Virus record (IMG/VR): IMGVR_UViG_3300020229_000001
Coordinates: 1 to 64,000 of that record
Source: a virus
Reading direction: 5' to 3' (one strand)
DNA: 64,000 nt
Both the position numbers and the translations under genes were made by a program. Shown in pieces: positions 29,060-51,200 of this stretch (position 1 is its first letter; the number at the start of each line of letters is the position of its first letter). The notes below the pieces were generated by a model, which saw nothing but the letters and a program-made list of their open reading frames with translations, was not told the origin of the DNA and did not search any database.

Positions 29060-30324
29060 TCGTTAAACACGCTGAGGTTGAGCTTCTCCATTTCCTTGAT
29101 CTGCTCTCGCACCTGCTCAATGGCAGAGCTTTTTGACTCGAGGTAGTAACCTTCAACCTGCTCTGCGTTCTCTAAAGCGTGCGCAAACGCGTCTTCCATT
29201 GTGTCGCCCAGGCCGATAACAGCGCCTATCTCCGGCAGCCCACAGTCCTGGGGGATGCAATAAAAGCCGTCCTTGTTCTTGTAAACGTTCCGGAGCTTAA
29301 CAAAATCCCGGATCTCGTCGGGGAATTTGACCTTCTGCCAATTCTGGTCCGCCCAGGACGAGTGGAGCATGATCTCGGCGCCATAAATGGCCGTCGGCTC
29401 AGGATCAACCACAACGCCGTTCGCTCCGTACCACATACACTCTGCCAGGTTGGAATACTGCTCCTGGTAGAGCTCGTTTGGAGGACTCGGAGCCCTGGCG
29501 CAGAAATCGATCATGTAGGGATCCATGTCTTTCCCGATCCGGATCTCGGTCGAGAAAAAGCCGCGGTATCCGTAAGCCTCGAAAACCGGCTTCATCGCCT
29601 CATTAAAGCGAGTTAAAGGTTCCGGAAGGTCGGCGTAGTTTTTGAAGACGGAGGCGAACCCGCAATCCTTGATCTCCAGGCCGGAGATGAGCGTATTCGG
29701 AAACTGGCCGTCGATTGTCCAGGCATCTGTCCCAAACTCAACGCGGTCGGGAAGGTCTTCCTCGACAATAAATTTGAGGTCATGCTTGAGCGGCCCGAGC
29801 TTGTACTCGACCTCGTCCAGTTTTGGCTCCACCTCTTCATACGAGGGCGCCTTGAATGTTTCAAAAGTGCCGCGGTACTTGTCGATCTTGACGTGAACGT
29901 CGTCGTGCTCCTTCAGGAAGGAGCGCAGGTTGTCCATGCCAGTGATTTCCCAATACTTGCCAACAGGCAGGCCGGTGCGCTCGATAATGCGCTTCATGCC
30001 GGCGCGGTCCAGTTCCATTTCCTCGCCCAGGCGAGAACCCCAGACAACCTTACCCATCCGGTCCAGCATTCGCTGCTCCCATCCAAAATAGATATCGGGG
30101 AAGCAGAAGAAATCGACGTCGTCAAAATGCGGGCCGTAGATGGAATCAACCAGCTCCAGGCCGTCCAACCCCTTGCCGATCCAGGCGGTGTTCAGCTTGG
30201 CAAAGGCGCACTCCCAGGGGCAATAATAGTAAACCTTTTTGAAGGTCTTGCTTAGTTTTAGCGCAAGTTCAACAAACAGGCCGTTGTCTACGACAAGACA
30301 GACTACGTCTTTTGGGTCTTTCAT
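29056..30324 (-). CDS. ATP-grasp ligase, PurD (GAR synthetase)-like
   Basis: MELDR..MK.....GLP, HVK, FIVEE, GYRGFFSTE, YMIDFCAR.P.P, GAVIGLGDT.E.A...A; three-domain GARS layout, 422 aa. Confidence 0.78.
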   Translation of the reverse strand: MKDPKDVVCLVVDNGLFVELALKLSKTFKKVYYYCPWECAFAKLNTAWIGKGLDGLELVDSIYGPHFDDVDFFCFPDIYFGWEQRMLDRMGKVVWGSRLGEEMELDRAGMKRIIERTGLPVGKYWEITGMDNLRSFLKEHDDVHVKIDKYRGTFETFKAPSYEEVEPKLDEVEYKLGPLKHDLKFIVEEDLPDRVEFGTDAWTIDGQFPNTLISGLEIKDCGFASVFKNYADLPEPLTRFNEAMKPVFEAYGYRGFFSTEIRIGKDMDPYMIDFCARAPSPPNELYQEQYSNLAECMWYGANGVVVDPEPTAIYGAEIMLHSSWADQNWQKVKFPDEIRDFVKLRNVYKNKDGFYCIPQDCGLPEIGAVIGLGDTMEDAFAHALENAEQVEGYYLESKSSAIEQVREQIKEMEKLNLSVFNE

Positions 30325-33500: not shown

Positions 33501-36500
33501 CGTCGTATTTTTCACGACTGATGGAGCCATTCACCATTTTAGTAAACAGCTTTCGATTAAACGCCTTGATGTCATTGGCATCCGATGCATTTGCATAACG
33601 CATTGGCACATCGATGACAAAAATGGCCTCCTTTCCATCGGGGCCAAGCCCCGAAACCACATTTCCTTCGTGGGCATCTCGCAAAAATGTTTTTGCCTTT
33701 GGATTGTAGAATTCAAAAAGATTGCCTCTTACTATCCTGAAAAAGTTTCTTTGATTTAAATATGAATCAATTTGGTTAATTGATAACGGGTCTAAAATTT
33801 TGACGTAAGGCTGCTCCGTGACAACATACGCACCGGGATCAGATCCCGTTACCCTTCCAGTAACAAGGTCTGAAAAATTTCCCTGAACATTGGCTTCCGA
33901 TTCCTTTGCTTGATCGTGGATTCCCTTAACGGTGATTTTTGTTTCAGGGAAAAACTCATTGTGCAGTCGAATTCGGTCGAAATAATCACCCCAGTTTTCT
34001 TCAAACATGGGAATATTTGTCCGCTTTTCAACTTTGCCATTTTCATTTCCAAGAATGACTTGATGCTCGGCCCCTGATTTATACCCCGACGCCCTCCACC
34101 TCTCGAGAAAGTCCCGATGATCCAAAAGCGCCCCGTGCTGGCGTGCTGCATCAACTAGACGGGTGTCTTGCGCTCGCTTTGCTGCCTCTGACGCACGGCG
34201 ACTTTCAGTTTCTCCTCGAACCTGTTCTGATTCTGAATCCTTTCCTCTAACGGAACGCTCGAAAACACTTCCGAGATTCTCACTAGGTGCTCTCGACCCT
34301 TGTTTGTTTTGGCTGCTTCCTGCTCTACTAACCTCTCCCTCTCTGCTCTGTCTGGAATTAAGTATTCGTTCATATTCTTCTTTTTCGGCAAAATCGCCAG
34401 ATTCTTTAGGATTACCATCAGGCATAAATCGAGCCTGACCGCCTTCCACAGAGGAGCGCATCTCGGGAGTAATGGCGACTTTCCAGATTTTGGGATTTTC
34501 TCCAATCTCTACAACTTCTCCACCTTCTCCGCGTCCCCGGTTGTTAAGCGCAACAACTGCGTGAGAACGGTTGGTGAACGTCATTGTTGGAGCGATATTT
34601 GGATTTCCTTGAATGACGTACTCTTTCTTGCCTTCAACCTCACCCGTTTCAACTTTAGCACCCCATTGCTTGACGTACTTGCCAATTTCATTTGGTAGGA
34701 TTTTGTCGTAAAAGCCTGTCATGCCTTCGCCGCCAATATCAAGGTCTAATCCGTCAGCTTTTGCGTATGCCGTAACCGGATCTGATTGAGAATTGAGGTC
34801 AGCAATAAGCTTTTCTGCAAGTGGCTTCCCTATTGTGTCAGCTACCTCCTGAGCAGACAGTCCGGGTTTATTTATTACTGATACAGGAAGGTTTGATCCA
34901 TCTGTGTTTTGGTATGCACTGACATGATACTTTCCGTCACCGTCATTTATTAGGTCAATGGCTGAGACATGTTTACTTAGGGAATACCGATCAGCTTGCG
35001 CTTCTCCTCCGGTCCAGCCAATCCAATTCTTGCCGTCAGCAACAGCTTTTTGAAGTGCGTGCTTGAATAGTTGAATGGGCCAATCTTTGCGGAATGGTGC
35101 GTCGGCAACGCCGTCTTGACGCATTGCTCCTGCGTTCATTAAGGCTGTCCATTCCTTGCGCTCTTCAGGTGTTGCCGCTTGCCCTTTTGCTTCAATTTCA
35201 CGCACCCTATTATAATCGCGAAGTTGTTCATTTTTGTACCCTCTTTTCCTAGCCGCCTGATGCAGATCAGATTGCAACTCTTCAATCAGCCTGCCAGTTC
35301 CAAAGTCTTGAGTGCGCATATGCGCAACATAGTTTGGAACGTCTGGAAAGTGGCTTGAGCGAAACTCTCCAACTCCAACAACATCGCTTTCTCCCCTGCC
35401 ATCAATTCTGGCTTGATCTAATGTGTCATAAGTGCCTTGTTCTCCATCAATAAATTCAACATCAAAAGATCCATCGTTTAATTTTTTAAATGAAGCAATT
35501 GGGTCAATTTCTGTTTTAGACGGCATTCTAAGAACAACCTCTTCGTAGTTTGTGCCGCCGGGAAGCTTGTATTTGGAGTATTGCGTCTCGTCTTCTCCGT
35601 ACTCAGAATCGATTTGGTTGGTCTCAGAAACGAACTCTTCCGCTTCTGGTCTACTCATCCCAAACATTTCCATTGCAGATTTCTCTGCTTCCTCAATTGT
35701 GTTAAATTTTGCAGCGCCTCCCCACTCTTCAGCTTCAGAGTAGAACTCGCCTTCAAAGGACTTTGCTTCTCGCATCCTCTGCGTCTCAAACTTTGCAACG
35801 TAACCGTCTTTCAAGAACTGCTTAACGTCATCTTTCGTGACATATCCTTTCTCCGCCTGCGCTGCGTCAATAAACTGATTGATGCCGCTCCATTTCATTT
35901 CGTCAGGCTTCACGCCACTACCCTTCTGCGGGTCCAGAATGCCCCTTATTTGCTCCGCACTGGCCCGATTAGGCATCTTGTTTAATAGAACCCGTCCAGC
36001 CTTGCTGTAGAACCCGGGGGCGACCTTTGTAGGGTCTTCCTCACGCTCTGGCATGAAGCGAATGCCTGACGGGATTTTGCTAGATGCCCACATGCTCCCG
36101 CCTTGCGGATCTGGTCTGCCAGTTTCCGTATCAAATAATTTTTCTCTTCGTAATGTAGCCTGTTTTGATATTGGCTCTCCGTATAGTTTTGTTGCACCAA
36201 TGCTTTGAGCATATTTTGCAATTTCTCGGTACAAAGCTTCTCCGTATCCTTGTTTTTCAAACCCGGAAGAATTGGCAGACAGCACCACCTTCAGGAGCTC
36301 TGGGTCATACGGATCTCTAGTGACAGTTGCGCTAGCCGCAACCTTGTTAGACATTTCCGGGTAAATGTAAATGTGCGTGTCTGGGTCTTCTTCAATTTCC
36401 TCAACTCTAGATTTGTATTTTGGCAACCTTGCCTTCATTACGTTCAGCTCTTCTTGAGTTGGTACGCGACGGTATTCATCTTCCAATTTCTCAGGTATAA

Positions 36501-39500
36501 ACCGGACCTGCGCTTCTGCTGGCTGAACCGTTGCCTTGATTTCACCAGTGCCTTTTGGGTCGTACTTAGCAGAGACTGATCCCAAACCTTTTAGGATACT
36601 ACCACCGAGCGCAGGACGCTGTTCTTCTTTAGCCTCCTGTTCGGGCATAAACCGGGCCTTGTACGGGATCGGGTACTTATACTCCGTGTTTGCGTTCTCT
36701 TCGGCAGCAGTGTGCGAATCAAGGCGGAATGATTTGATGATCTGGTCAAAGCTAGACTGTTTATCGAGCTTGCGTTCGGATCGGCTAAACTTGTTCCGGT
36801 CTAGGTCTGGAATAGACTCAACGTCGGGCACATTTGGATTTGGTGCGCCGAGCATCTTTTCGTAAATGGTTCGCTTGAGCTTTGCAACATTTGGGTCTGC
36901 ATCGAGTCCCTGCCAGCCCGGGACACTTGCGTCGGGGTTCGCAAGGTTCGGAAGCAGCACCGTTCTAAACTCGTTCCAAAATTTTTGTGTGTCGCCGCCC
37001 CAAGGCTCAAACACTCCCTTGGCATATTTCTCATAAAGCCCAACCTTCCTACGAAGGTCGCTAATATCCCAAGCAGTTGTGTAAAAATTGCCAGCCTTTG
37101 AGAGGTGCAATTGCAATGGGACGATCTGCCGAATCTTTGGAGAAAACGCCTGATAGTTGCCTTTGTCATTCAACCGGGAGGCGTAATCGATATCAAGCAC
37201 CGTCCCGTCGCCCCGAGTCATTAGGTCGTCGTACTTAAACAACAGTTCCTTCATTGAGGCTGGAACAATACTTTCAGGAAGTGCAGCAATTGCCGCACGC
37301 TGCGCTGGAGTCATTTTTCCAGTGTAGTGCAGGTCTTCATCATCTTTTCCCTGCCCGCCTTTGATCGCCCGGAACCGTCCCAGCTCAGATGGATCTCCAG
37401 CGTTATCGATGGCATCACGGACCATTTGCACCCGGCGCTTAATATGCGCTACGGTTTCCTTGTTTTTGCGTTCTTTTGGCTTCCCGGTGGCCTCGTCGTA
37501 AGCAATCTGACGTTCTACTTGTACTCGCCCACCGACCGGGACTTCGAGTCCAACTAATTCAGGATGTAATTCTCCAAATCCCCGTTCCTTGTTTGGAACA
37601 TTATCCCCAGTCGTATCGTCTTGGTGATAAATCCAACTACCTTCAGATGCGTTGTTGTCAGTTAGGTTAACCGTCTGCACTACCTTACCATCTGCGTCCG
37701 TAACTACAGCCACTGGAATCGTCTCAAATTTCCCTGTGTCCTTAAAATACTTGTTAAGCAACTCTTTTGAGTTTTTTACGTCTTTTGGCGTAATGGGCGC
37801 AGCCACCGCTTCTCCCGGCTCTGCGTCAGTAAAGTCGCCGTCGTACTTCTTCATCTCCCGCTCGACGTTGCGTATCGCACGCATTACCTCAGGGCTGTAC
37901 GTTGCGCCAACAAGCCCAGAAGTCCACTGTTTGTACACCGCTGGCCCTGCAATTGCGTACAAGTGATTCAACGCAGATTTGACGTTGTTGCTACTGACAC
38001 GAGAAGCCAACCAGTTAATTCCTCGCTGCGCTGGAGACTCTGGGTCGCCAAAGAACCTTCCTGCGTGAGCTTCTGCGAGAGTTTCCTCCCGCATCAATTC
38101 AACAATCTTGTTCTTGTTAAAGTCGTTTGCCGCTTCATCCCAAACTCCAGCGGCTTCAGCGTAATCCTGAACTTGTTCTGCTGTCTTTCCTTCTAAATAT
38201 TTTTTGTAAAATTTGCCAAACAGATCATCCCGGGACATTCCGGGCTCCGCAGGAGTGATTTGTCGCACATTGCCATTTTCATCAACAGCCTCTGTGCCGA
38301 ATATTTTGTTGAACAAAGGTGCGATCCGCTTGCGGTATTCGTCCTTGCCAAACAAGCCGTGCCCAACAACTTCGTGAGCAAGGACGTTTGAGATAGCCTC
38401 CCCAGAAAGCTCTGCCTTTTTTAAAGCGTTTTCAACATTCACAAACACCGTATCTTTGGCAGGGTCCATCGTAAACCCGTCCTTGGCGGTGCCTTTCCCA
38501 ATCATAATGCCGTCAGCGGTTGGATTCTTTTCTAACGCCTGCTCAATAGTCATTGGTGCTCCAACCCCATTGAAATTAGGGTTTTCCGTAATCATCTTGT
38601 CGATAATTTGGCTAGATGTAAGCAACTCAATGTTCATGTTGCTGTTAGGAGTCAGCACCCCGTTTATGAGGTTTGACACTTTCCCTAGCGACAATTTAAT
38701 GCCATCCTCGAACGCTTGCCGGGCTTCCGGGGGCGCAACTATGTTTTCCTGATGGAGTCGATAAGCAAACTCGTAATCTGCTTTGGCCTTAGCCGCTTCA
38801 GGTGTATTTGCCCCGTTCACCATTTCGGCAAAATGCGTTTTCTGAGCCCGATCAAGGCGTTTTTCAGACTGCTTGATGACCTTGTCCCAGTTCAAATTTG
38901 TGACATTTTCTCGAGATTCTGGGCTTAACCCAAGCATAACCCTTTGAGCCTGTCGCATCTCTGCGTCTCGGTTCATTTTGTTGCGAATCGGATCATTCCC
39001 TACTAATCCTCCGAGAACCTGCCCGTGAATAAATCCATAGGTCGCAAACTCAGCCCACATTTGTGCAAACTCTTGAGCGTCCTTGTCTTCAAGTACTCCC
39101 ATTGCAACCATCATTGGCAGCATTGACACGTTGTGTTGCACAAAGACGTTTGCGTTTTTTTCAATAAAATCCAACGCTTTGCCGCCACCAGCTTTTTGCG
39201 ACCAGTTCAAAAATCGTTGCACCTCAGGAGATGCTGATTCCATTTTTTCTAACGCCTCAAAGCGGCCCAATTCAGCGCCGGATAACCTTCCAGCTTTAAG
39301 TAGCTGCTGCCCAAGGCGAGGCGCAGCCGCAATCGCCTTACCAGCAAGCTGAATTCCAAGCCCAGTTCCTGCGCCTTTTAACGCCCCGGCCAGCGGATCA
39401 TCAGACGCCAATGCACCAGCGCCAGCGCCAAGTAGAGTCGACCCGGCATATTTTACAGGTTTTGGAAGGCTTTCAAAGGCTGTTTTAGACCGATCAATGG

Positions 39501-40998
39501 TGTCTGCAATGTTGCCAAGTGGCTTTTCGAGCCACCCGGGCTGCTCTCGGGCAATTGCCTCCGCTTCACGCTGCGCTTGCAGTGCCGCGCTATCAGCGGC
39601 GTACATAACATTGCGAGCCTCACCAGTCTTTCCAGCCGCTCTCAACCCTCGACCTATTTGCTGACCTAACATGCTCAAATCTCGCACAACTGCCCCGCCC
39701 AACCCAAACACGTTTAATGGCGATGTCATGGCAATTGCGCCAACTTGTTCAGGGTCTTCCCGTAGACGATTGGCTTCTTTTATTTGAGCTTGCACCCCAG
39801 TTTCAGCGGCTGCTTCTGCTTGCAATCGACGGTTAGCCCTCGCTGCTTCAATATTGCCTCCAAATCCAAAAACAGCGTCTTCTGCTGGGGGCATCAACTT
39901 TTCAACAACATCAACCCAGTATTTTTTAACGGCAGGATCTTGCCACAGGTCATCAATTGTTCTGGCCAAAACAGCGGGATTTTTTTCCCTCTGCATGTGG
40001 TCGATATACTTTGCATTCATCCGAGTTGCAAAGTTCTTCCTAGCTTGATCCATTGCTGGAGCAGCCGCAGCTTCACGCAATGCAGCTTCTTGCTCCATAG
40101 AGATGGCAGGAGCAATTGATGGGTCTGCTAGAGTCCCTTCCGCAGTGGCTTTAGCAATGCCAACCTTAGCCTTGTCCCAAAGCATAGCTCTACCTTCAGA
40201 AAAATCCTTTGTTGCCTTTAAAAGGTCTTCTCTAGCCATCAAAAGGGCATCGCCAAACACCCGAGCGGACCGATACGTTTTGTCTCGGAGCGACAATTCA
40301 GCGTCTCGGATTTGCTGTTCGTTTAGTCCCTTTTTTTGCTCTTCAGTGAGCGTTTTGCCTTTCCCGAAATCTTCAGGGCTACCGACATACACTGCGCCTG
40401 TAAGAGCATCCTTTGCTAGCCTGCCAGCGCCAGCAGCAAGAGGAGGCAAAGACGCCAACATTCCAACCCCGGCCTTCCCTGCGTCTGCAATTAAATCAAA
40501 CGCACTTGTATCCTTGTTCCACCTGTAATCGAACAGAGACTGCAACTGCACAGGGTTTTCGGCCATGTTGTACCAAGGAACTGTCTTGTGTAGCTCCTCA
40601 AGGTCGTGCGGGTCGGTGATTCCTTTGAACACCGTTTCCGTAATCCCCTTGCGGGTGTTAGGATCAGTGATTCCAGCGTATGCATTAAACTTGCCTGTTG
40701 GGCCAACCGGGACTGGGGCAAACTGCCCAGAGCCGAGTGCTCCGCTGCCAATCAACGAAGACTGTTCTGGAGGCGCAGTGCTGCCGACCATTTCGGGACG
40801 AAACATCTCGCCGCCACCAGACAGCGTGCCACCAGAAGTCTGCATTCCGGGGGATTCCCCCTTGAATGCAGCTAGAATTTCTTCATCAGAAATGCCTTTT
40901 GCCTCTTCCTTGCTGTAAATAGGCTGACTGACAGATGGCTGTTCTCCCTTAAACGCAGCCAGAATTTCTTCGTCTGAAATCTTTGGAGTTTCAGCCAT
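30592..40998 (-). CDS. Giant polyvalent ejection protein (zincin, GNAT, kinase and HhH-like domains)
   Basis: 3468 aa after the internal virion genes; LAHEVVGH...EE zincin; FEKQGYGEALY GNAT; SGAEHQV..LHNEFFP..QPYV..DAHEGNV..VID kinase; GWY..GPKIGSF.NNL.GD...T.DLW..R..QAALW domain. Confidence 0.85.
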   Translation of the reverse strand: MAETPKISDEEILAAFKGEQPSVSQPIYSKEEAKGISDEEILAAFKGESPGMQTSGGTLSGGGEMFRPEMVGSTAPPEQSSLIGSGALGSGQFAPVPVGPTGKFNAYAGITDPNTRKGITETVFKGITDPHDLEELHKTVPWYNMAENPVQLQSLFDYRWNKDTSAFDLIADAGKAGVGMLASLPPLAAGAGRLAKDALTGAVYVGSPEDFGKGKTLTEEQKKGLNEQQIRDAELSLRDKTYRSARVFGDALLMAREDLLKATKDFSEGRAMLWDKAKVGIAKATAEGTLADPSIAPAISMEQEAALREAAAAPAMDQARKNFATRMNAKYIDHMQREKNPAVLARTIDDLWQDPAVKKYWVDVVEKLMPPAEDAVFGFGGNIEAARANRRLQAEAAAETGVQAQIKEANRLREDPEQVGAIAMTSPLNVFGLGGAVVRDLSMLGQQIGRGLRAAGKTGEARNVMYAADSAALQAQREAEAIAREQPGWLEKPLGNIADTIDRSKTAFESLPKPVKYAGSTLLGAGAGALASDDPLAGALKGAGTGLGIQLAGKAIAAAPRLGQQLLKAGRLSGAELGRFEALEKMESASPEVQRFLNWSQKAGGGKALDFIEKNANVFVQHNVSMLPMMVAMGVLEDKDAQEFAQMWAEFATYGFIHGQVLGGLVGNDPIRNKMNRDAEMRQAQRVMLGLSPESRENVTNLNWDKVIKQSEKRLDRAQKTHFAEMVNGANTPEAAKAKADYEFAYRLHQENIVAPPEARQAFEDGIKLSLGKVSNLINGVLTPNSNMNIELLTSSQIIDKMITENPNFNGVGAPMTIEQALEKNPTADGIMIGKGTAKDGFTMDPAKDTVFVNVENALKKAELSGEAISNVLAHEVVGHGLFGKDEYRKRIAPLFNKIFGTEAVDENGNVRQITPAEPGMSRDDLFGKFYKKYLEGKTAEQVQDYAEAAGVWDEAANDFNKNKIVELMREETLAEAHAGRFFGDPESPAQRGINWLASRVSSNNVKSALNHLYAIAGPAVYKQWTSGLVGATYSPEVMRAIRNVEREMKKYDGDFTDAEPGEAVAAPITPKDVKNSKELLNKYFKDTGKFETIPVAVVTDADGKVVQTVNLTDNNASEGSWIYHQDDTTGDNVPNKERGFGELHPELVGLEVPVGGRVQVERQIAYDEATGKPKERKNKETVAHIKRRVQMVRDAIDNAGDPSELGRFRAIKGGQGKDDEDLHYTGKMTPAQRAAIAALPESIVPASMKELLFKYDDLMTRGDGTVLDIDYASRLNDKGNYQAFSPKIRQIVPLQLHLSKAGNFYTTAWDISDLRRKVGLYEKYAKGVFEPWGGDTQKFWNEFRTVLLPNLANPDASVPGWQGLDADPNVAKLKRTIYEKMLGAPNPNVPDVESIPDLDRNKFSRSERKLDKQSSFDQIIKSFRLDSHTAAEENANTEYKYPIPYKARFMPEQEAKEEQRPALGGSILKGLGSVSAKYDPKGTGEIKATVQPAEAQVRFIPEKLEDEYRRVPTQEELNVMKARLPKYKSRVEEIEEDPDTHIYIYPEMSNKVAASATVTRDPYDPELLKVVLSANSSGFEKQGYGEALYREIAKYAQSIGATKLYGEPISKQATLRREKLFDTETGRPDPQGGSMWASSKIPSGIRFMPEREEDPTKVAPGFYSKAGRVLLNKMPNRASAEQIRGILDPQKGSGVKPDEMKWSGINQFIDAAQAEKGYVTKDDVKQFLKDGYVAKFETQRMREAKSFEGEFYSEAEEWGGAAKFNTIEEAEKSAMEMFGMSRPEAEEFVSETNQIDSEYGEDETQYSKYKLPGGTNYEEVVLRMPSKTEIDPIASFKKLNDGSFDVEFIDGEQGTYDTLDQARIDGRGESDVVGVGEFRSSHFPDVPNYVAHMRTQDFGTGRLIEELQSDLHQAARKRGYKNEQLRDYNRVREIEAKGQAATPEERKEWTALMNAGAMRQDGVADAPFRKDWPIQLFKHALQKAVADGKNWIGWTGGEAQADRYSLSKHVSAIDLINDGDGKYHVSAYQNTDGSNLPVSVINKPGLSAQEVADTIGKPLAEKLIADLNSQSDPVTAYAKADGLDLDIGGEGMTGFYDKILPNEIGKYVKQWGAKVETGEVEGKKEYVIQGNPNIAPTMTFTNRSHAVVALNNRGRGEGGEVVEIGENPKIWKVAITPEMRSSVEGGQARFMPDGNPKESGDFAEKEEYERILNSRQSREGEVSRAGSSQNKQGSRAPSENLGSVFERSVRGKDSESEQVRGETESRRASEAAKRAQDTRLVDAARQHGALLDHRDFLERWRASGYKSGAEHQVILGNENGKVEKRTNIPMFEENWGDYFDRIRLHNEFFPETKITVKGIHDQAKESEANVQGNFSDLVTGRVTGSDPGAYVVTEQPYVKILDPLSINQIDSYLNQRNFFRIVRGNLFEFYNPKAKTFLRDAHEGNVVSGLGPDGKEAIFVIDVPMRYANASDANDIKAFNRKLFTKMVNGSISREKYDEIKPFLTDPSASGALEGAQVRFMPDNENIPGALEGIKIEPKEEERLPALASIAPLPKTITDERGMFSVVIGAKPGEHGYTYRTASELRDQLKTVSGQKAAVETWGELQLKKQRQLELLAKADEAAKNAKKPEKTAEFEAKKAAYAEKVAALDTQIEEMRSQFPEKMQNMSPEDAAWKAQVKKLNRSFEEVSLKATPAPFTANPLGIRSMAELGDSVHDILKSDGFNGILKDFFGLDGLEIRPIAGTWQGKVEPSFDLVHPELTFDKAKQITQLLTLAFAQDAGITYKPSIDLKEGTQAAYLIHSTKLTDDQLKLAFDKAREVGVDVSTTTDGKGIKALNFGTEDFASKLSEIQKSASIDQSYETIVASELYETEKIFKGRDNQRVLPVWLQATSGGQSLLQRSIDSLLIDYAKAAAAQGYIFDPALYAKRYGLSDSDAKYIKDKLYPVDPMARSASPLLAGTEILPVRSTYTLAGKRETAVPDMIHALQNRAASDGVILPGDYSPRAMDIISSVVADEVQQHMARAALNPKSPNAIGWYDAALKRMKGMYSQLFPWLEVGSPQHDADKSLVFDAVLGIASQGNDVFENGKMATRVTLMLENGKTLPEIVTALHGTFGDKTAAIENNILKLHELLTRHTPSQLRALLFKTDTVANWNKNLKQDTSLYYNGEPLSVEGGKNQMVTGFMVFGPKIGSFINNLHGDYSTLTADLWYTRTWNRILGRSFKYDPLKEGHQFERFQDSLIEEYNRNQALKKGKEYTDRVLIKKGVEEPYLYGEDAPRWSKKEFHKLLEDSGAMLEFAEHLEKVFRTGSFKGKTELRRAAKNWVQDRTTPLGAPRASNERAFQQTTMEQAQARLAQAGIVVTIADMQAALWFNEKELFGKYGAATSGAEPADYADAAKFSLDIIQAGGLFQVDRKGETVRLLSEADEANLTGVKSPNKGLMKQLMEKEKAIKAAEKLRKEAEGEDEE

Positions 40999-41001
40999 AA
41001 A

Positions 41002-43074
41002 TTACTCTTTTGAGGAAGTATTCCATCCGCCATCAGCGTTCCATCCGTTCTCAAACTGTGATGGCGCAGGTGCAGAGAAATACGAAGCGTGAAACCCGGG
41101 CACTTTGAAGTATGTCAGGGATCCAAAAGCTTCCTTTTTGGGGTGTTTTAACTCATCAAGGTTCGGAGGGATAAAGCTGTTGTTTTTCAACGCAATGTAA
41201 TCTTTAACAATCGGGTTTAGTTTCAAAAATTGCTCACGTTTATCTTTGGGCATTTCCCCCTTTAAAGTGCCAGTTGCGTCATCAAAATACTCACCTTTCA
41301 ATTTTGCGTGCTCAATCAATGCTTGCTCTAGATCTTTCCCTCCGAGTTGCTCTTTCAAGAACTCCTTTGTCTTCAGTAGCGGATATTTTACAGGCAACTT
41401 GATAGGCGAAATGTTTGGGTTTTCGCTTTTCAAAATAGACTCAATATTTGTCAACTGAGCGTTCACCTGATCCGCAGACGTGTTGTAAGTGTTAAGCATC
41501 AAATCTTGCATTGTGCGGACATCACGTTCATCAAGCGTAGCCCCAGAGTTCCAAAATTGCACTTTTTTGGCAATGCTCTGCCATCCGCTCAAACCTGAAA
41601 ATGCGTGTTTTGTTTCTTTGAATTGGGCTTCGGTAGGAGCTTTTCCAGAAGCAAATTGAGCAAACAAATCCATCATTTCTTGATGGACTGCCCCCAATGA
41701 TGCTTCAGCATTATTTTTACGAGCAATTTTATCTTCCGCCACGGCTGTAAGCATGCGCTGCATTGCGTCTTTACGAGTGTCCATCAACTTTGATGTCGGA
41801 TGCCTTTCGTAATTATTTGCCATTGCCGTCACTTTGGCTTCTCGGGAAATATCAAGGCGCTGCTGTTTCAATCCTTGAGTTGCAGCATGTTCTTCAACGG
41901 TGCGAATTTCGGCCCTGCGTTCTTTTGTCACATCTATGTAATCAACGTGAAAATAAGGAACTTGCGTGGTCGGATCTTTGGACACCGCCATAACCTCTCC
42001 AAAAGGATATTTCCTGTTGAATGTAAGCGCCTGAAGATTTGCTAAATCTTTTCTTTCTGGATAACGAGTCAGCATGTCTCGCTGATTAACTTTTTGAATG
42101 TCTGGTACTCTAGCCAAGGCCCCTTTTGGTTTTGAGTCTTCAGGCTGAAGTGATGGCTCTCCTAACATTCCCAATGCAGGCAGATATTTAACGGCATCAG
42201 TCTGGGAATTGTCTTTTTCCCCGGCAGGAGTTCCAAGTGCAGGAAGCTCTTCTTTTTTTGATTCTTCTTTTGGTTTTGGAGGTTCAAAAGTTGGTAGTGG
42301 CAAGCTTGAAAGCCTTCCCTTTTTGATAATTTCAGCCTCTTGCTCTGCTGGCGTTAATTCAACAGGAACCGCAATAGGAGCCGCCACAGGAATAACTTTA
42401 GGCGGAGCCGCTGTGGAAGCCACAGGAACAACCTTAGGTGGAGCGGCGATAGGAGCAACTGAAAGCGACATTGCAGGCCCACCCGTTGGGGCTCCGTTTA
42501 ATGTCATTGTTGGCATGCTTGGAATAAGAGGAGAAGCAGTGGCAATGCCTTGCAGTGCTCCAACTTGGTCAGTAGAAGATGCCTGCGGGAGCGGGAGCGG
42601 GTCAAGTGTGGGGGCAATGCGTGTGTTGGTTGCTCCAGTTGATGCATCACCTTGATCGCCTTCATCACCCCCAGCCCCAATAACCGGGTCTAAAGAAAAC
42701 TGTTGCTTTCCTTTCCCAGAAGAAACAGCGTCCACCCGGGCCATCGCCTCTTTGTGCATGTCCTCGTTTCGCTTTTCTTGAGCCGCCTGTTTCTGCTCTT
42801 GTAAAGCTTGCTGTCTCTCAGCTAACGCTGTCCTTTTGGCGTCTTTCTCTGCCGCATATCTGGCGCTGATTCCAGCCCCAATGGACTTGATTGCGCTCTC
42901 GATCCCTTGAGCAATGTAAGGCTTGCCTTCAGGAACCACCCATTGAGCACCTGCACTAATTTGAATTGGATTCTGACCAAATGACAACGGACGAATACCT
43001 GCCAGCGCATTATAATTAATGTTTGGCGTGGCTAATTGAATTGGAATTCCAGCGGTGTCGTAAAACAAAGGCAT
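41002..43074 (-). CDS. Internal virion/ejection protein
   Basis: Pro/Ala-rich linker and helical C-terminus; position before the giant protein. Confidence 0.65.
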   Translation of the reverse strand: MPLFYDTAGIPIQLATPNINYNALAGIRPLSFGQNPIQISAGAQWVVPEGKPYIAQGIESAIKSIGAGISARYAAEKDAKRTALAERQQALQEQKQAAQEKRNEDMHKEAMARVDAVSSGKGKQQFSLDPVIGAGGDEGDQGDASTGATNTRIAPTLDPLPLPQASSTDQVGALQGIATASPLIPSMPTMTLNGAPTGGPAMSLSVAPIAAPPKVVPVASTAAPPKVIPVAAPIAVPVELTPAEQEAEIIKKGRLSSLPLPTFEPPKPKEESKKEELPALGTPAGEKDNSQTDAVKYLPALGMLGEPSLQPEDSKPKGALARVPDIQKVNQRDMLTRYPERKDLANLQALTFNRKYPFGEVMAVSKDPTTQVPYFHVDYIDVTKERRAEIRTVEEHAATQGLKQQRLDISREAKVTAMANNYERHPTSKLMDTRKDAMQRMLTAVAEDKIARKNNAEASLGAVHQEMMDLFAQFASGKAPTEAQFKETKHAFSGLSGWQSIAKKVQFWNSGATLDERDVRTMQDLMLNTYNTSADQVNAQLTNIESILKSENPNISPIKLPVKYPLLKTKEFLKEQLGGKDLEQALIEHAKLKGEYFDDATGTLKGEMPKDKREQFLKLNPIVKDYIALKNNSFIPPNLDELKHPKKEAFGSLTYFKVPGFHASYFSAPAPSQFENGWNADGGWNTSSKE

Positions 43075-43075
43075 A

Positions 43076-43588
43076 CTAAGAGCCCCCAAAGGAGATTTGA
43101 CCTAAATTCGGGACTTGAAATTGTTTCACCTCGGGCGGGGTTGCCGTCATTTGGTTTGCCGCCCGGGCAGCTTGTGGGCCTTGAGACACTTGAGCTGCTT
43201 GCGGTGACATTCTTGGCGATTGGGTTGTAGCAGCGGGGGAAACGGGCGCTGCTGCCGCTCCGGGTGCTTTAAGCACGCTCGCGTTGGTTATGCCCTGAGG
43301 GGCAGAATATGCCGTTGGCTGCTGCACTGCTGGTGTTACTGAAGCGGAAGTAGAAGGTGATGCAGATGGCGCTGGAAGCCCTTGTGCAGGCTCTGTCTTT
43401 ACTGGGTGAGCATCTCCATACGCTTTGGTGAAATCACCGTAGCTCTGTCCTTTTGCGGGGGGAGGAGCGTCAGAGTGAGCCGCAGCAAACTCACGATTTT
43501 TTGTAAAATCCGAGCCAAAAGTAGCATTTAAAAAGTTGGTTCCACCTATTTTTTCAATAAAGTCAGGGTTTTTAAATTTTCCGCCCAT
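43076..43588 (-). CDS. Low-complexity virion protein with FGG-X C-terminal tag
   Basis: Starts MGG; ends FQVPNLGQISFGGS. Confidence 0.65.
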   Translation of the reverse strand: MGGKFKNPDFIEKIGGTNFLNATFGSDFTKNREFAAAHSDAPPPAKGQSYGDFTKAYGDAHPVKTEPAQGLPAPSASPSTSASVTPAVQQPTAYSAPQGITNASVLKAPGAAAAPVSPAATTQSPRMSPQAAQVSQGPQAARAANQMTATPPEVKQFQVPNLGQISFGGS

Positions 43589-43590
43589 AA

Positions 43591-44148
43591 TTAAGATCCT
43601 CCAAAGGTTAAGCCCGAAATGCTCGGGAGACGAAAGTTGCTCTGCTCTTGCGCTTGTTGTGTAAGAAAAGCTCCACCGCCACCCGGCTTATTATAAACTG
43701 GAGCATTTTTTACTGCTTTTGTCATGGAAGTTGGTGCGCTAAAATTAGTTGGCGACCCATCGCTCGTAGACATTGGTCCCACAGCTTGCATTGGTCCCAC
43801 AGCTTGACTAGCTGTTGTATCTGGAGCAGTTGCCGTAACTGGTCCGCCAAGGGTAGCCTGCCCAACAATGTTTGGATGCTGAATGTCATAAAGTTTTTTT
43901 GCCTGAACGTCAGAGGCTGCTTTTGCTTGAGCATCCGCATTAGCTGCGGCCAAGCTATTTGCCTTCATTAAGTTAAGCCCTACGCCCGCAGAAACAAGTC
44001 CAATTGGCCCCATGAACGGGGCAGTGGCAACCAGTACTGGAGCAAGTTCTTTTGGAACCGCTTTAGTAAATTCTTTTGGAACAGCCTTGGCTATTTCATT
44101 GGGAATCATTTTTGCAACGGCACGAAATCCAGATGACAACCAGCTCAT
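43591..44148 (-). CDS. Low-complexity virion protein with FGG-X C-terminal tag
   Basis: Ends FRLPSISGLTFGGS. Confidence 0.65.
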   Translation of the reverse strand: MSWLSSGFRAVAKMIPNEIAKAVPKEFTKAVPKELAPVLVATAPFMGPIGLVSAGVGLNLMKANSLAAANADAQAKAASDVQAKKLYDIQHPNIVGQATLGGPVTATAPDTTASQAVGPMQAVGPMSTSDGSPTNFSAPTSMTKAVKNAPVYNKPGGGGAFLTQQAQEQSNFRLPSISGLTFGGS

Positions 44149-44149
44149 A

Positions 44150-44632
44150 TTATATTCCTCCAAAAGTTACTCCAGTCGTGCGGGGCATCTGGAATTGTGA
44201 TTGCTTAGAATTGGGCATAGCTGGGTTTACTGGGCTCAAGTTGCTTCCAGCAAGATTGGCCGCAGTCCGGGGTAGATAGTATGCCGCTGCGCTTAAATTA
44301 GATAGCTTGGCTTGATTTAAGGCATTAACGTCAATTGCGCCACCAGTAATGGCGGACCCAGCCATTCCCGCCTGAGCTGCCGCCGCCTGTGAGGCAGTAG
44401 AATCTTTTGCCTTCTGATAAGCCTGCGCTCGAAGGAGGCTTTGTTGCGCCTGAGAATTACTCTGGTTCATGCCTAGCTGCGCTGCGTTATTTTGAGCGTC
44501 AATCATGGCTCTGCGCTGGGCTTCCGCTGCATCCTGCGCTGCTGCCCCCTGTTGTTGGCGCATCAATTCAATCTGCGCGATCATCGGAGTGTAATCAGGA
44601 GGTGGTGGTGCTGAGTAATGTGATCCGCCCAT
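44150..44632 (-). CDS. Low-complexity virion protein with FGG-X C-terminal tag
   Basis: MGGS..APPPPDY start typical of ejection proteins; ends FQMPRTTGVTFGGI. Confidence 0.7.
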   Translation of the reverse strand: MGGSHYSAPPPPDYTPMIAQIELMRQQQGAAAQDAAEAQRRAMIDAQNNAAQLGMNQSNSQAQQSLLRAQAYQKAKDSTASQAAAAQAGMAGSAITGGAIDVNALNQAKLSNLSAAAYYLPRTAANLAGSNLSPVNPAMPNSKQSQFQMPRTTGVTFGGI

Positions 44633-44638
44633 AATTTG

Positions 44639-45472
44639 TTATTTCTTAAATAGCCCGGGATTGCCAGCAAATCCTCCTGCAATTGACCCTGCCGCGCCAA
44701 TACCAGCCCCAACAAGAGCATTGCTTTGATCTGCGTTATGCTGCGCCCCTTGGAGCATAGCCTGTTGGTAGTTCTGCCAGTCTTTTTTGTTAGCTTCCGC
44801 CGCTTGATTGGTAGAAGACATCATCTGATTAATCCAGTCTGTCGTTGTCTGAGCAGCGCCTTGCGTGCGCCCCAGCATCGCTTCTTGAAATCCAGCCCGC
44901 TGTTGCATTCCCTGAGCTTTAGCGGCCTGCTGTGCGCCCAGAATCGAACCAACATCAATGCCTGCGGTGGGTGCTGGATTGCCACCAAGATAAGCTTGCG
45001 CCCGATCTAGATTTGCCCGTCGCATTGCCATCCCTTCGAGCGTTCCAGCGTCGTAGAGCGCCGACTTGCCAACCGTGGAATCAGCCATCCCAGAACCAAG
45101 ATATTTGGCTAACCCCGCACGTTTTGCCCATTGATCCATTTGTTTCTGCCAGTTCCCGGGCGAGAGGTCTTCCTGCATTGCGGCTGGCAGTGACTGGCGC
45201 AACGCTGCCATTTCTGGGTTGGTCTGCTTTTCAAGCTCCTTCGACTTAAAGGAGTTAATTGCAGCAATTTCGCCAGCTTGCGTTGACATGCCATCCTGCC
45301 CCCAGATGTCAGGAGTCCAGCTTTCCAAAGGCATGTTAGCAGCAAAGCCAAGCAGCCTGTTTTGTTGGGCCATCTGTTGGGTGCCCAGAGCCGACTGCAT
45401 GCCAAGTTGCGCCGCCGAAAGGGCAGGATCTGGGCGAGTGATAAAAGCTGAAGGGTCAACGGAAGATCCCAT
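44639..45472 (-). CDS. Ejection (pilot-like) protein
   Basis: Gln/Ala-rich with C-terminal Gly-rich hydrophobic helix (ALVGAGIGAAGSIAGG). Confidence 0.65.
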   Translation of the reverse strand: MGSSVDPSAFITRPDPALSAAQLGMQSALGTQQMAQQNRLLGFAANMPLESWTPDIWGQDGMSTQAGEIAAINSFKSKELEKQTNPEMAALRQSLPAAMQEDLSPGNWQKQMDQWAKRAGLAKYLGSGMADSTVGKSALYDAGTLEGMAMRRANLDRAQAYLGGNPAPTAGIDVGSILGAQQAAKAQGMQQRAGFQEAMLGRTQGAAQTTTDWINQMMSSTNQAAEANKKDWQNYQQAMLQGAQHNADQSNALVGAGIGAAGSIAGGFAGNPGLFKK

Positions 45473-46114: not shown

Positions 46115-48256
46115 TTATGCGATTGGAGGGTGAAGCGCCCTATATTGTTGCGCAGCCAACTGCGCTTCTGCTGTTGCTTTTGCAAGCGCAATAGCGTCAG
46201 CGTCAGCCTGTGAAATGTACGACGTTGCTGTAGCGGTGGCTGTGGCAACGGCATTTCCGCGCCTCCCCGAAATGGCACCGACTTGAACGGAGGCTGTTTT
46301 TGTAGCGGTCCAAACCATCCTTTGGCTGTTTGGATTTTCTTGCGGGGCAGGAGCCAGTGAAACCAGTGTTGTTGCCCCCGTTTCGCCTAAAACACAGAAT
46401 TGCGTCTCGTTGAAAGTTACCTGACCAGTAGAGCGGTCTTGGAACGGATCTTGATACATGCGAAGGGCCTCGACACCAAGGCCGCCGCACCACTCGATTA
46501 AAAGCGAAAACGCCTTGTCAATATTAAGCAAAAAGTTGCTTTCGCAGCTCTTTTCCGTTGAATTTGGTTGCACGGATTCCGTGATAAGCCTGCGGTGTTG
46601 AGTTTGAAGAAACCCAAATTTATCAATGTTATTTGATTCGTAGCTTGTCTCGTACTCGTAACCTTCCGTGGCGGCTAAGATGCGAGTGCTTAAAATAGGT
46701 TGGTAAGTACCCTTGCTGCCTCTGTAACTAATCTTAACGTCAACAGTCCCTGCAATTTGACCGCAATCAACTTCAGCGTAGGCCAACTGCTTTAAGTCCA
46801 TGCTGTCTCCGAGCAGCGCTGTTTCCATCTGGCAGTAAATTCGATTCACCAAAGTGGTTGTGCTGCCATCCTCGTTGATATTTAGGTAAGTGTCATACCT
46901 TTCTGGCACAAATGCTTCCCAAAGGTGGATGTGCGAGCCGTCGTTTGTACGCCCGTAATCTACCGAAAACGCAAAGATCCTCGGCGCACTCGTGACAACC
47001 CCAGAAACCCACTCAATAGGGCGAATCCCTGTCCAGACTCCGGCCCAAGCAGGGTTCCTAGCTTGGTTCCACTCGGCGGCGGCGGCATAATCGAGCATCA
47101 TCGTTACCGAGTTGACGGGCTCAAGGTAAGGTATTGAGCAAAGTAGGTAATTTTCAAACGAGGCAGAACAAATGCCAGACAAGTTGGACGACATAAGCCG
47201 TTTGGCCTTTGCCATCTCCACATCCTTGTACAGCACCTGCGACGAAAGATAACTGCTAGCGGCAACGTCCGCGCTTACAAGCCCACCTTGCGAGTACCAC
47301 CACATCATCCCGGCTTGGAACGCAATGCTTTTCCCAGCAATGCACCCCACAGTGGGGTAGAGGACGTTCTGAAAGTTCGCGGTAGTCGCCCACTGCGCTC
47401 GGTCAAGAATCCCAGACGCTAGCGAATAGGTTGAACGGTCAGTCCAGACGTAGAGTCGAGAGTCGTTATTCTGCCCGACATAGTCCTGCATGGCGGTAAT
47501 TCTACGCGGGACCGAAAAATCACCTCTACCCGATCCAATCGTGCGTTCAATCCAACTGAGGGGATCGCCAAGATCTGACGCTGAAATAATATTTCCAGAC
47601 GCAACCCAAAGGCGGTTTCCGGAAAATGCCATCCAATAGCCGATTGGAATGTCTTTTAATTGCGTTCCAGTTTGGTCTGAGCCATCCCAAACACCAGCAT
47701 ATCGCACTCCATCTTGAACAACGATAATTCGATGCGCGGGCGTGATTGAGAAGTCGCCGCCAGACGAGATGGTTGCTGTCTTGGTAGCAGTTACGAAATT
47801 GACCCGTTCAACATTAGGGTCTAAAGAGATGCCTGCCAGCAGGTAGTCGTTCCAGTTCTTGGGCTGAACCAGCGGGAATGGGCAGTAATAAACCTTGCCA
47901 TCGACGGAAAACACAATGTAGGGCAACTCGGACTCCTCAGACTGACCACCTTCAGGCGTGTAGATTGTAGCGACCTGCGAAATCTCTACACCATAAAGAT
48001 TTGTGTACGTTGAACTCGCCTTGTACTGCTTGTTGGAATTAAAAAGTATTCCGCCTTGGAAGTTGCCACTTGGAAGCGAAAGCCGCATGGCAAACCCCGG
48101 GCGAGTTTGAACAATACCTCCGCGAACGGTAACATTTTGCCCCCATTTAAACTGGTCCTCTGGCAGGGTCCACGGGTTGCGAACTGAGTTAACTCCATGC
48201 GTCCACCCAGCGGAAACCTTATTGAGCCGCCCAGAAGTAATATTTGGGCTTTTCAT
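46115..48256 (-). CDS. Tail nozzle/stabilisation protein (T7 gp12 / P22 gp10-like)
   Basis: GVNS...P..LP..Q.....N...RGG...TRPG start, NRLWVA..SDLGDP..W beta-propeller motifs; 713 aa. Confidence 0.75.
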   Translation of the reverse strand: MKSPNITSGRLNKVSAGWTHGVNSVRNPWTLPEDQFKWGQNVTVRGGIVQTRPGFAMRLSLPSGNFQGGILFNSNKQYKASSTYTNLYGVEISQVATIYTPEGGQSEESELPYIVFSVDGKVYYCPFPLVQPKNWNDYLLAGISLDPNVERVNFVTATKTATISSGGDFSITPAHRIIVVQDGVRYAGVWDGSDQTGTQLKDIPIGYWMAFSGNRLWVASGNIISASDLGDPLSWIERTIGSGRGDFSVPRRITAMQDYVGQNNDSRLYVWTDRSTYSLASGILDRAQWATTANFQNVLYPTVGCIAGKSIAFQAGMMWWYSQGGLVSADVAASSYLSSQVLYKDVEMAKAKRLMSSNLSGICSASFENYLLCSIPYLEPVNSVTMMLDYAAAAEWNQARNPAWAGVWTGIRPIEWVSGVVTSAPRIFAFSVDYGRTNDGSHIHLWEAFVPERYDTYLNINEDGSTTTLVNRIYCQMETALLGDSMDLKQLAYAEVDCGQIAGTVDVKISYRGSKGTYQPILSTRILAATEGYEYETSYESNNIDKFGFLQTQHRRLITESVQPNSTEKSCESNFLLNIDKAFSLLIEWCGGLGVEALRMYQDPFQDRSTGQVTFNETQFCVLGETGATTLVSLAPAPQENPNSQRMVWTATKTASVQVGAISGRRGNAVATATATATSYISQADADAIALAKATAEAQLAAQQYRALHPPIA

Positions 48257-48257
48257 A

Positions 48258-51200
48258 CTAGAACATTACGCAATCGGTTCCATCTCCGTATGTTATGTTG
48301 TTTATCTGCGGAGGTTGCATGGCATGCCCGTCCATTGAATCGCTTTCGCTGCGCAAATACATAACGGATGCCTGCCAATACTTTTGCGCTTGATCAAGAA
48401 AGTCTTTGTCTTCCAAATCAACCGCATGAACGCCAGCAATAATTGCGCGGGCGTTTTCAAGCGGAATGTAGTCGTAAACACTCGTGATTTCAGGGCACTT
48501 TACGCGATAAATCAAGCGAACCCACGCGGATTGCTGGCCAATGCGAATGCGCCGATACTTTGGGTTGGTCTCGGACGGGTGATACTGCCCGATCAGCGCC
48601 ATATCGTTTGAGCGCCCATAATCAAAAGCGTAGAGCGAAACATAGCCAATCGTTAGTGGCTTTTCAATGTGTTGCACTGACTTCACTAAAATTGGATCAA
48701 GGATGGAATCGATGTAGAAAATGGAATCGATAGTGTCCCCAGTGCTCAGAAAGTCTATTCTTCCAGTGATGCTGGATGTTGTGGTTGCATGTGGCTTGGT
48801 GTCATACAGCTCCACAAAATTATCTCCAATAGCCCGGGCGTAATAAGTCGAAGAGTCAGACAATGGAACGGGAAGCGTGTCGCCCTGATTTGCCCGAACC
48901 AGAACTTGATCCCCCGTGTTTAAAATAGAATTTCCTGCAATTACTGCCGTGGATGGCTCGACTGTAAAATCGCGAGAAATATCAAGCGACAAATACCCCT
49001 CGCCAAGATTAGTAAAAACAATCGGCGTTCCGTTTTGTAAGGTTATTGAAACTTTTCCCTTTATTACAGACAACAAGTATACAGTCGATGCACTCAAAGG
49101 CGCAGGCAATACTCCCGTGGTTGAAGAAAACTTCACCCTCATGCCCGATAACAGGTAAGTCAAGTACGATGGGATAATTTCGTTGTTTGCAACTATTCCA
49201 CCACTGCGAGCGCCATAAGCGTAATACGCTTGCCCAGCTCCAAGTTCTTGGACTTGCAATAAGACAGTGGCACCAGAATCCGTGTAAACTCCTGCGCTAA
49301 AATTACTTACTGCCTTTAGGTAATACGTTTGCGCTACACTTGATGGTGGTGAAGTTATTGGCAACTCGTAATCTGTTTGCAACCTTACTGGAAGGACAGT
49401 GGTGATTGCAGAAAAGTCTCCATTCCAATAATTAGTAAATCCAATCGCGAATGTTCTGGAAATAACCAAGTACAAAGTGCCACTTCCAGTTGACGTTACG
49501 TTTACGTCCGTAAAATCAGCATTTTTGACGGTGAACGAGTTTCCAGAAGACGGATTTTCAGCCCGATACGACTGCCCCTGCACGAGAGGAATCGGAAGCG
49601 TTCCAGTGGACGAGAATTGAATAAAAACACCAGTGGACGGCAACACGGAAACCGTAGGCGCTGTAGTATATCCTGTGCCTTCAGTAACGACATTTACATT
49701 TGTCACAACGCCAGTGTATTCAAACGAGAATGTTGCCCCTCCTCCCCCTGCGGGAGAGAAAGAAATTTGCGGGTTACTGTAGCCGTATCCGTAATTAGTG
49801 ATTGTTATTCCCGTGATCTTTCCAGCGGAGACGGCGACTGACGCAGTTGCGCCAGTTCCAGTTCCGCTAGATCCGTCCGTGATGAGAGCGGTCAAAGAAG
49901 ACGAATATCCAGAACCCTGCGTAAGTACGTTAATTTTACCGATCCCAAATTGATCCAGCACCGCAGTTGCGCTAGCGCCTGTTCCGCCTCCGCCAGAGAT
50001 GTTGACGGCAGGGACGTTCTGGTATCCAGATCCGCCATTTTCAACAACGTACTCGGATACAAATGACGTTGTGATGGTGCTAGATGCCGTTGCCGTTTTA
50101 GGAAGGCTGCTTGAGAACGTAATTGCGGGCGTTGAGCCTCCTGTCATCACGCTAATCGACGTTATTGTCACCCCCGTTGGAGGCGTAATTACAATTGTAT
50201 CGTTGGATGTTGGAGAAACGGCGGCGGAATAACCTCCAACCGTAATTAAAGGAGCCAAACCAGCGGCAACTGTGGAAACGGACGGGGCAGCGGGGGTATT
50301 GGTAAATGTAGCAGACAACAAATTTGTAGCTAACCCATTGACTGTAAGTGAAGTTACGGTTGCGTTTTGTACGCCCGGGCTAGCAATTGTGAGCTGCGGC
50401 TTTAGCTGCTGCGGGGCGCTAATGGTCACTCGTGGCGGATACAGGTAGCCCTGTCCTGACGAAGTGATGTTAATCCCGTTTACAGAACCCGTAATAGAGT
50501 TTACGGACAAAGAAGCCGCTGCATCCGATCCATATGGCAAAAGTGTAACTCCAGTGATTGTGCCGCTTCCATTGAGAACCAAGGACGCTTTTGCGTGGAA
50601 TCCGCCAGTCGAAAGACCACCAATAAAAACAACCTTTGGTAAATTTGCGACCGTGTAGCCCAATCCGCCGCTGTTAATTTGTATTGAAGCCACATAACTA
50701 AATCCAGTGGCTACGTCAGTGCCAAGGATTGCTTGGAGCGATGCCGCTGTCGTATATGTGCCGCCCACAAGAGACAAATTTGGAGCGGCTGCGTACTTGT
50801 ATCCTCCAATGTCTGAAATTGTGGCCGTTGCCGTTGTGTAGCCTGCGCCCCCAGTCACCAACGTCATCAACGTGATTGGCCCGGAAACGCGAGCTGTGAT
50901 AAGAGCACCTGACCCAGTTGCAGGCGGAAGCGTCAAACCAGAAACGGAAATGTTATTTTTAGTTCCGGGCGATGCTGTTGCCGTTAAAAGTTTAGCAATA
51001 CTGTTCTGGCCAGACCCCGCCGTAGTCAACGCAATTGGGCTAGACCCACTCAGTGCATCCGAGTAACTGTTATGTAATGTAACCGCTGGAAGTAATTCAT
51101 CTGGCAACACATACACATAATAATTCTGGCCAATAATTAACGGCTGAGGAAGGGTGCCTCCAGCAGTATTTGCTTGAACTATGTCCCCAGAGGAGTAATT

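Follow-up and report, generated by a model that had tools for sequence, protein, structure and literature searches.

What is the role of a short peptide that recurs at the ends of three adjacent and otherwise dissimilar phage proteins? The question is raised by a locus in a 64,000-nucleotide stretch of viral DNA (the window), which forms the first 64 kb of the 94,385 bp IMG/VR record IMGVR_UViG_3300020229_000001. Three adjacent minus-strand genes (44150–44632, 43591–44148 and 43076–43588) encode proteins that share a gapless C-terminal peptide of 14 residues, referred to here as the tag. The open reading frame (ORF) list gives the three ends exactly as an initial annotation of this DNA had quoted them. 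The tag is real and strictly C-terminal; it is universal in this phage lineage and, within the reach of our searches, confined to it. We consider the chances to be about even that, in one uncultured podovirus lineage, it serves the internal (ejection-type) proteins as a shared peptide for docking or loading. The genes and their tags are as follows.

44150–44632, minus strand: tagged protein 1, 160 residues, starting MGGS; a core family present in most relatives, built of an N-terminal MGG, a long Gln/Ala-rich helix and the tag.
44153–44194, minus strand: tag 1, FQMPRTTGVTFGGI, with Gly-Gly codons GGA GGA; GGAGG at 44157–44161 lies 8 nucleotides before the next ATG (44146–44148).
43591–44148, minus strand: tagged protein 2, 185 residues from its ATG, with KAVPKE-like N-terminal repeats.
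43594–43635, minus strand: tag 2, FRLPSISGLTFGGS; GGAGG at 43598–43602 lies 9 nucleotides before the next ATG (43586–43588).
43076–43588, minus strand: tagged protein 3, 170 residues, starting MGGK; Pro/Ala-rich and basic.
43079–43120, minus strand: tag 3, FQVPNLGQISFGGS, with Gly codons GGG GGC; the stop codon is followed by one nucleotide and then by the ATG (43072–43074) of the gene for a 690-residue protein.

The surrounding genes are likewise all on the minus strand. The true start of the middle tagged gene is the ATG at 44148, while the alternative TTG at 44163 (190 residues) is an artefact that comes from the upstream tag as seen in a different frame. If ATG starts are used, the tagged genes and the 690-residue gene (start 43074) are spaced by 1–2 nucleotides and do not overlap. 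All three tagged proteins are rich in Ala, Gln, Pro and Ser, are of low complexity and are basic, with isoelectric points of 9.3–9.6. A crude Kyte–Doolittle scan picks out one hydrophobic segment in the 185-residue protein (1.74), the 160- and 170-residue proteins staying below 1.0. The same 185-residue protein contains, at 44020–44130, three to four tandem A/I-P-K-E-[IF]-x-K-A-V repeats followed by a hydrophobic Gly-rich segment, and the repeat is kept in the homologues from loci L004 and L052.

Conservation and C-terminal restriction

Within the window the tag follows the pattern [FY]-x-[ML]-P-x4-[LIV]-x-F-G-G-x-stop, and no further ORF ends in this way. A six-frame scan of the whole 64 kb finds F..P......FGG only three times, each at one of these C-termini, and the same three ORFs are the only ones in the whole 94 kb record to end in [FYW]GGx.

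Using a conserved neighbouring protein of 713 residues as an anchor, we fetched 66 related IMG/VR loci. In most of those with enough flanking sequence, the 713-residue homologue is followed by one to four small ORFs that end in the tag. Overall, one to five tandem tagged small genes are present in about 150 related IMG/VR contigs, which together supply 165 unique tagged proteins with the consensus N-x-[FY]-x-[ML]-P-x-[TS]-x-G-[LI]-x-F-G-G-x. Where only one small gene precedes the 690-residue homologue, the lineage at first seemed untagged but carries the variant IQSPAVGKTLGGY. The initial annotation had left room for orthologues in related phages that lack the motif; what we find is that relatives keep it throughout the lineage.

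The position of the tag is equally well defined. When a hidden Markov model (HMM) of the tag is run against the 1360 ORFs of the related loci, all matches above 10 bits lie 0–12 residues from the stop codon. A regular expression for the front half of the tag ignores the Gly-Gly; it returns 172 unique near-C-terminal cases, 152 of which continue as x-[FL]-G-G-x-stop. Among these 172 cases the capping residue is absent in two and replaced by a two-residue cap in one, and a handful end without Gly-Gly (FGEGR, FSGK, TFR). A 45-residue C-terminal profile was searched against 1.84 billion protein representatives and gave 81 matches at E ≤ 0.001. All but three repetitive outliers (78 of 81) are the extreme C-terminus of proteins or fragments of 128–303 residues, and the matching clusters are named only as metagenomic 'hypothetical protein'. 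HMM, regular expression and profile search agree on the restriction to C-termini for which the initial annotation had proposed a test.

The limits of the distribution were explored with a back-translated DNA pattern, which finds 94 stretches in 2.9 million IMG/VR contigs. About 88 of them belong to this lineage, as judged from nearby homologues of the 713-, 136- and 277-residue proteins or from typical tandem tagged ORFs. The remaining stretches, about six, look random, and their number is near the rough chance expectation. The INPHARED phage genomes give no match, and the GTDB genomes contain no relative of the 713-residue protein.

Several known motifs (clamp-binding, PIP-box, sortase LPXTG, double-glycine leader and adenovirus-protease site) were considered for the tag and set aside, as the spacing of its conserved residues fits none of them. 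The segment LMSSNLSGIC of the 713-residue protein was considered as an internal copy of the tag; it scores below 5 bits against the tag HMM and is treated as a chance resemblance. The 1352-residue protein encoded just upstream of the gene for the 713-residue protein has a C-terminus (48258–48320) that ends in DGHAMQPPQINNITYGDGTDPVMF and is well conserved in its homologues; its N-I-T-[FY]-G-[DG]-G core is faintly like the G-L-T-F-G-G of the tag. The conserved N-terminal 50 or so residues of the 690-residue family (42970–43074) also hold a tag-like stretch; its form in L058:15052–15120, GFNFALPSLAGIT, reaches 5.9 bits with the tag HMM.

Relationship of the protein bodies

The three proteins had been described as otherwise unrelated. 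With their last 16 residues cut, the three bodies of the window fall in different BLAST clusters. When the tag and the four N-terminal residues are cut off, profile–profile comparison with hhalign yields probabilities of less than 1%, equal to those of reversed-sequence controls. The description therefore holds in so far as the bodies are undetectably similar. It goes too far in that M-G-G starts are common, a weaker NPA...AAN...GG[TS] stretch often lies directly N-terminal to the tag, and the arrays of some relatives hold two members of one BLAST cluster, which are true paralogues. Judged from such pairs, tandem duplication occurs in some relatives' arrays.

These features bring up a second explanation, to which we give about half the weight of a docking peptide. 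The tagged genes would be a tandem paralogue family with bodies that have drifted past recognition, and the tag would be its most constrained ancestral remnant instead of a portable signal. The copy number of one to five per array, the several loci with two members of the same cluster, the similar sizes of the proteins and a wider C-terminal module of about 40 residues that is partly shared are all in agreement with this. The M-G-G start is found in two of the three tagged proteins of the window and in 135 of the 165 tagged relatives, against 112 of 828 other ORFs. It is not specific to tagged proteins, however: the untagged 277-residue family and other untagged proteins of 84–185 residues also begin with M-G-G or M-G-S. 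Such starts are shared by almost every small protein of the module (43076–45472 in the window; loci L002–L160 among the relatives) and never occur in the larger neighbours. Common descent is further at odds with the hhalign result for the bodies in the window, and it leaves about 14 fixed residues unexplained where the most conserved neighbour is only 55–60% identical. As only these 14 or so residues are fixed, a functional constraint is still needed, and descent from a common ancestor therefore overlaps with the docking peptide and does not replace it.

Codon usage and the Gly-Gly end

Across the 165 tags, codons at the F, P and L/I positions are freely synonymous, and the peptide is therefore under selection. 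The claim that the tag DNA has diverged while the protein sequence is maintained is thus borne out, both for the three genes of the window and across the relatives.

A second layer of constraint is seen at the Gly-Gly. The first Gly codon is GGA, giving GGAGG, in 124 of the 165 tags, compared with 31% of internal Gly-Gly pairs. GGAGG followed by one codon, the stop and 1–2 nucleotides comes to lie 7–9 nucleotides before the next ATG, and a GGAGG-type core 5–10 nucleotides before the next start codon is what characterizes an embedded Shine–Dalgarno element. The preference depends on spacing: tags whose stop is followed by the next ATG after 1–2 nucleotides have GGA in 88 of 97 cases, and the other tags in 22 of 42. 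Long spacers contain a separate AGGA for the next gene in 16 of 23 cases; tags before such spacers often use GGC GGG or GGT GGA, yet keep F-G-G. The end of the tag thus probably doubles as a Shine–Dalgarno-like element of the next gene that drives coupled translation. On this codon evidence selection acts at both levels, the Gly-Gly being kept as protein and as GGAGG. The geometry of Gly-Gly plus one residue is the one that a built-in ribosome-binding site at GGAGG would give.

That the conservation is purely one of nucleotides, with a translational-coupling or ribosome-binding element at the gene junctions and a functionless peptide, is the least credible explanation, and we regard it as next to impossible. 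The strong enrichment of GGAGG and its correct spacing before the next ATG are what such an element predicts, but it accounts for only about five of the 42 nucleotides. It is largely refuted by the synonymous codons at F, P and L/I, where the amino acids are conserved, and by the persistence of F-G-G as GGC GGG or GGT GGA where the downstream gene is preceded by a separate AGGA. In most genes of this phage an element of this kind is missing altogether.

In the window two of the four GGAGG elements sit within tags. Most minus-strand starts have A/T-rich sequence upstream, for example aataaataaa. This pattern of gene starts suggests a host that rarely uses Shine–Dalgarno sequences.

The same codon data bear on the proposal that a Gly-Gly capped by one residue resembles the end of a ubiquitin- or ThiS-like precursor. 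The tag would then be a processing or conjugation site, from which the last residue is trimmed to leave a Gly-Gly carboxylate that is ligated, in a ubiquitin/ThiS-like or ATP-grasp-dependent reaction, to a lysine or to an N-terminal Gly-Gly; in a simpler variant it is just a cleavage site for a maturation protease. The near-invariance of the Gly-Gly, usually with one residue after it, agrees with such chemistry, and so does the frequent M-G-G at the N-termini in the module, which becomes Gly-Gly once the methionine is removed. Potential enzymes are also at hand in the window: an ATP-grasp-like protein, whose match to PurD is faint, and a giant protein with an HExxH motif.

Nevertheless, we consider processing or conjugation improbable. 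The Gly-Gly-x-stop geometry coincides with the putative GGAGG ribosome-binding site of the next gene, the cap can comprise zero or two residues and some tags end without Gly-Gly. What precedes the Gly-Gly is a disordered linear motif and not a folded β-grasp domain, with no match in Pfam, NCBIfam or PHROG. The Atlas model of the 160-residue protein has a predicted template-modelling score (pTM) of 0.30. The family scans recognized no E1-like or JAMM gene. The likeness to ubiquitin, ThiS and MoaD precursors thus comes down to a C-terminal Gly-Gly plus one variable residue. It differs in that no β-grasp, activating enzyme or peptidase partner is found here, in that the cap varies and in that the Gly codons double as GGAGG, and the original analogy has little in its favour.

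Nor does the tag co-occur with the ATP-grasp gene as had been proposed. The gene is found in only one of the five tag-bearing relatives of 95–100% completeness and is absent from the other four; it is an accessory of the closest relatives, outside the core of the lineage. The encoded protein (422 residues, 29056–30324) gives sub-threshold matches to PurD (15 bits, with a cut-off of 288) and PurK (12 bits). More improbable still is an extended version in which the F-G-G-x and (M)G-G ends are substrates of a virion peptidase or ligase that covalently joins the internal proteins end to end or to lysines. If true, ligated Gly-Gly ends would represent a ubiquitin- or sortase-like chemistry that is not known in tailed phages.

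Gene context and the docking peptide

The minus-strand gene order is 713-, 129- and 277-residue proteins, the tagged genes, then the 690- and 3468-residue proteins. The members on either side of the tagged genes include the following.

46115–48256, minus strand: 713-residue β-propeller protein, possibly tail hub- or nozzle-like; the anchor for finding relatives.
44639–45472, minus strand: untagged 277-residue protein starting MGSS, with a Gly-zipper hydrophobic C-terminus; one of the consecutive module proteins that begin with MG[GS].
41002–43074, minus strand: 690-residue protein in a gp15-like position; a candidate partner only.
30592–40998, minus strand: 3468-residue polyvalent protein with a Kinase-PolyVal domain and HExxH, in a gp16-like position.

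The 713-residue protein shows 72% mean column identity across its homologues. Its AlphaFold model is poor (predicted local distance difference test score of 54). Atlas structural neighbours include a cluster with 17% of members from PF11134, the P22 gp10 hub family (TM 0.62/0.84), and low-TM Foldseek matches include the podophage tail chains 9nwi_Y and 9vyg_M. Together, the Atlas neighbours and the Foldseek matches suggest a hub- or nozzle-like protein. The 690-residue homologue follows directly after the last tagged gene in every relative. Its model consists of a long helix (residues 52–118), a disordered Pro/Ala-rich region (120–337) and a confident helical domain (338–669). Complex prediction with the C-terminal 45 residues from the tagged proteins, run as one monomeric pair, gives an ipSAE of 0.00, a value that has no bearing on binding either way. 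Searches of PHROGs, Pfam and NCBIfam return no family for the tagged, 277-, 136- and 690-residue proteins or for the presumed portal (7895–10318), scaffold (6385–7653) and coat (3344–4549), and a PDB sequence search returns no match for the 713-, 807- and 401-residue proteins.

The source record itself shows an irregularity. Its first 32 kb or so (1–31862) and its last 31 kb or so (63512–94385) are collinear at only 67–91% identity. Related complete contigs measure 60–64 kb, and the 94 kb record resembles some 1.5 genomes placed end to end. Two related phages were probably assembled into one chimera, although CheckV rates the record as 100% complete.

By analogy, the order of hub-like gene, small genes, 690- and 3468-residue genes, which is kept in all relatives, matches the gp14–gp15–gp16 ejection operon of podoviruses. 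The gp14-like factors of that operon measure 181–240 residues, and gp15 encloses gp14 in the T7 core stack (PMC8954989). The P22 ejection proteins assemble together with the scaffolding protein, and the portal is not needed for this (PMC12005531). The tagged genes resemble those for T7 gp14 and P22 gp7 in their position: they lie downstream of a hub/nozzle gene and are followed directly by the genes for two internal proteins, the first mid-sized and the second very large. They also resemble them in size (160–190 versus 181–240 residues) and in the Gln/Ala-rich helical composition of their products. They differ in that several copies are present per genome instead of one and in that most copies seem to be without multiple predicted transmembrane helices. 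A conserved C-terminal F-G-G-x peptide has, to our knowledge, not been described for gp14 or gp7. Membership of the P22_gp7 family (PF25688) was looked for specifically: the tagged proteins have no Pfam match even at E ≤ 10 and no PHROG match.

The gp14-like position also allows the tag to act after ejection, which we think rather unlikely. It would form a β-hairpin-like element in which a P-N-T-S-G turn joins two short hydrophobic strands; this element would either bind a component of the host envelope or the tail hub, or oligomerize the tagged proteins into a ring that starts the trans-envelope channel. The alternating hydrophobic pattern (F-14, M/L-12, L/I-6 and F-4) and the hydrophobic segment in one tagged protein are in keeping with this. 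T7 gp14 is ejected first and forms the outer-membrane pore (PMC8954989), and several different tagged proteins per genome would suit a mixed oligomer. On the other hand, structure prediction gives no support for a hairpin, as seen from the low pTM of the 160-residue model. A membrane could not be crossed by strands of three or four residues, and by the crude Kyte–Doolittle scan most tagged proteins seem not to have the two to five predicted transmembrane helices that are typical of gp14-like factors.

A closer parallel for a docking peptide may be found in T4. T-even internal proteins are highly diverse, and their only common part is the capsid-targeting sequence (CTS), which addresses them to the assembling head (PMC3012670). 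As in the T4 proteins IPI, IPII, IPIII and Alt, a peptide of about 10–15 residues is here the sole common part of diverse small basic proteins encoded at a variable locus. The T4 CTS, however, lies at the N-terminus; once it has brought the protein to the scaffolding core, the prohead protease cleaves it off at an L/I-x-E site. The tag is confined to C-termini and holds no L/I-x-E cleavage motif, and no protease or cleavage is evident. It further differs in that it belongs to a podovirus-like lineage and is attached to low-complexity bodies instead of folded inhibitors or enzymes; the two peptides have no sequence similarity. Short C-terminal peptides that dock otherwise unrelated proteins to the inner surface of an HK97-fold shell or to its assembly core are also known from encapsulins, as cargo-loading peptides, and from phage scaffolding proteins, as coat-binding ends (P22 gp8 and the CpmB of 80alpha/SaPI1). 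Their consensus differs from that of the tag, encapsulin peptides being Gly-Ser-Leu-rich and phage scaffold ends helix–turn–helix.

In the docking explanation, one to five dissimilar, disordered and basic tagged proteins would bind one common partner through their C-terminal peptide. The core protein of the 160-residue family and up to four further small proteins would engage this partner in the internal protein complex of the particle, and the tagged proteins may later join a trans-envelope conduit. Candidate partners are the 690-residue protein, a scaffold-like protein of 422 residues, the portal and the hub. The notion of a sorting signal thus survives as an address or docking signal common to proteins of the virion module, as argued by the C-terminal position, the conservation and the ejection-type gene position, while the ubiquitin/ThiS argument that accompanied it is weakened.

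Several points weigh against a docking peptide. It is only gene position that would place the tagged proteins in the virion. They have no sequence or family match to T7 gp14 or P22 gp7 in PHROG, Pfam or NCBIfam, and the Atlas feature score to P22_gp7 is only 0.80, which is a lead only. For the 690-residue protein, Foldseek and VIA-align searches returned generic helical bundles and no specific match to T7 gp15. The low-complexity bodies are not recognizable cargo enzymes, and the analogy with the diverse effectors of T4 is therefore incomplete. The M-G-G starts, similar sizes and proven paralogues mean that common descent may explain part of the resemblance, and tag counts across relatives are phylogenetically non-independent. 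Finally, the genome is poor in Shine–Dalgarno motifs, with ten of 58 genes carrying one, and a ribosome-binding role of GGAGG is plausible only.

The tag is a coding motif whose last codons would also serve as the ribosome-binding site of the next gene, and it cautions against reading every Gly-Gly-x-stop as ubiquitin-like. Little is understood of how podoviruses load their internal and ejection proteins, even in P22 and T7. A compact C-terminal peptide that is kept throughout a lineage would offer a way to identify its receptor within the procapsid or core. If the tag proves to be portable, it could be used to load foreign proteins into the particles of short-tailed phages, much like the CTS of T4.

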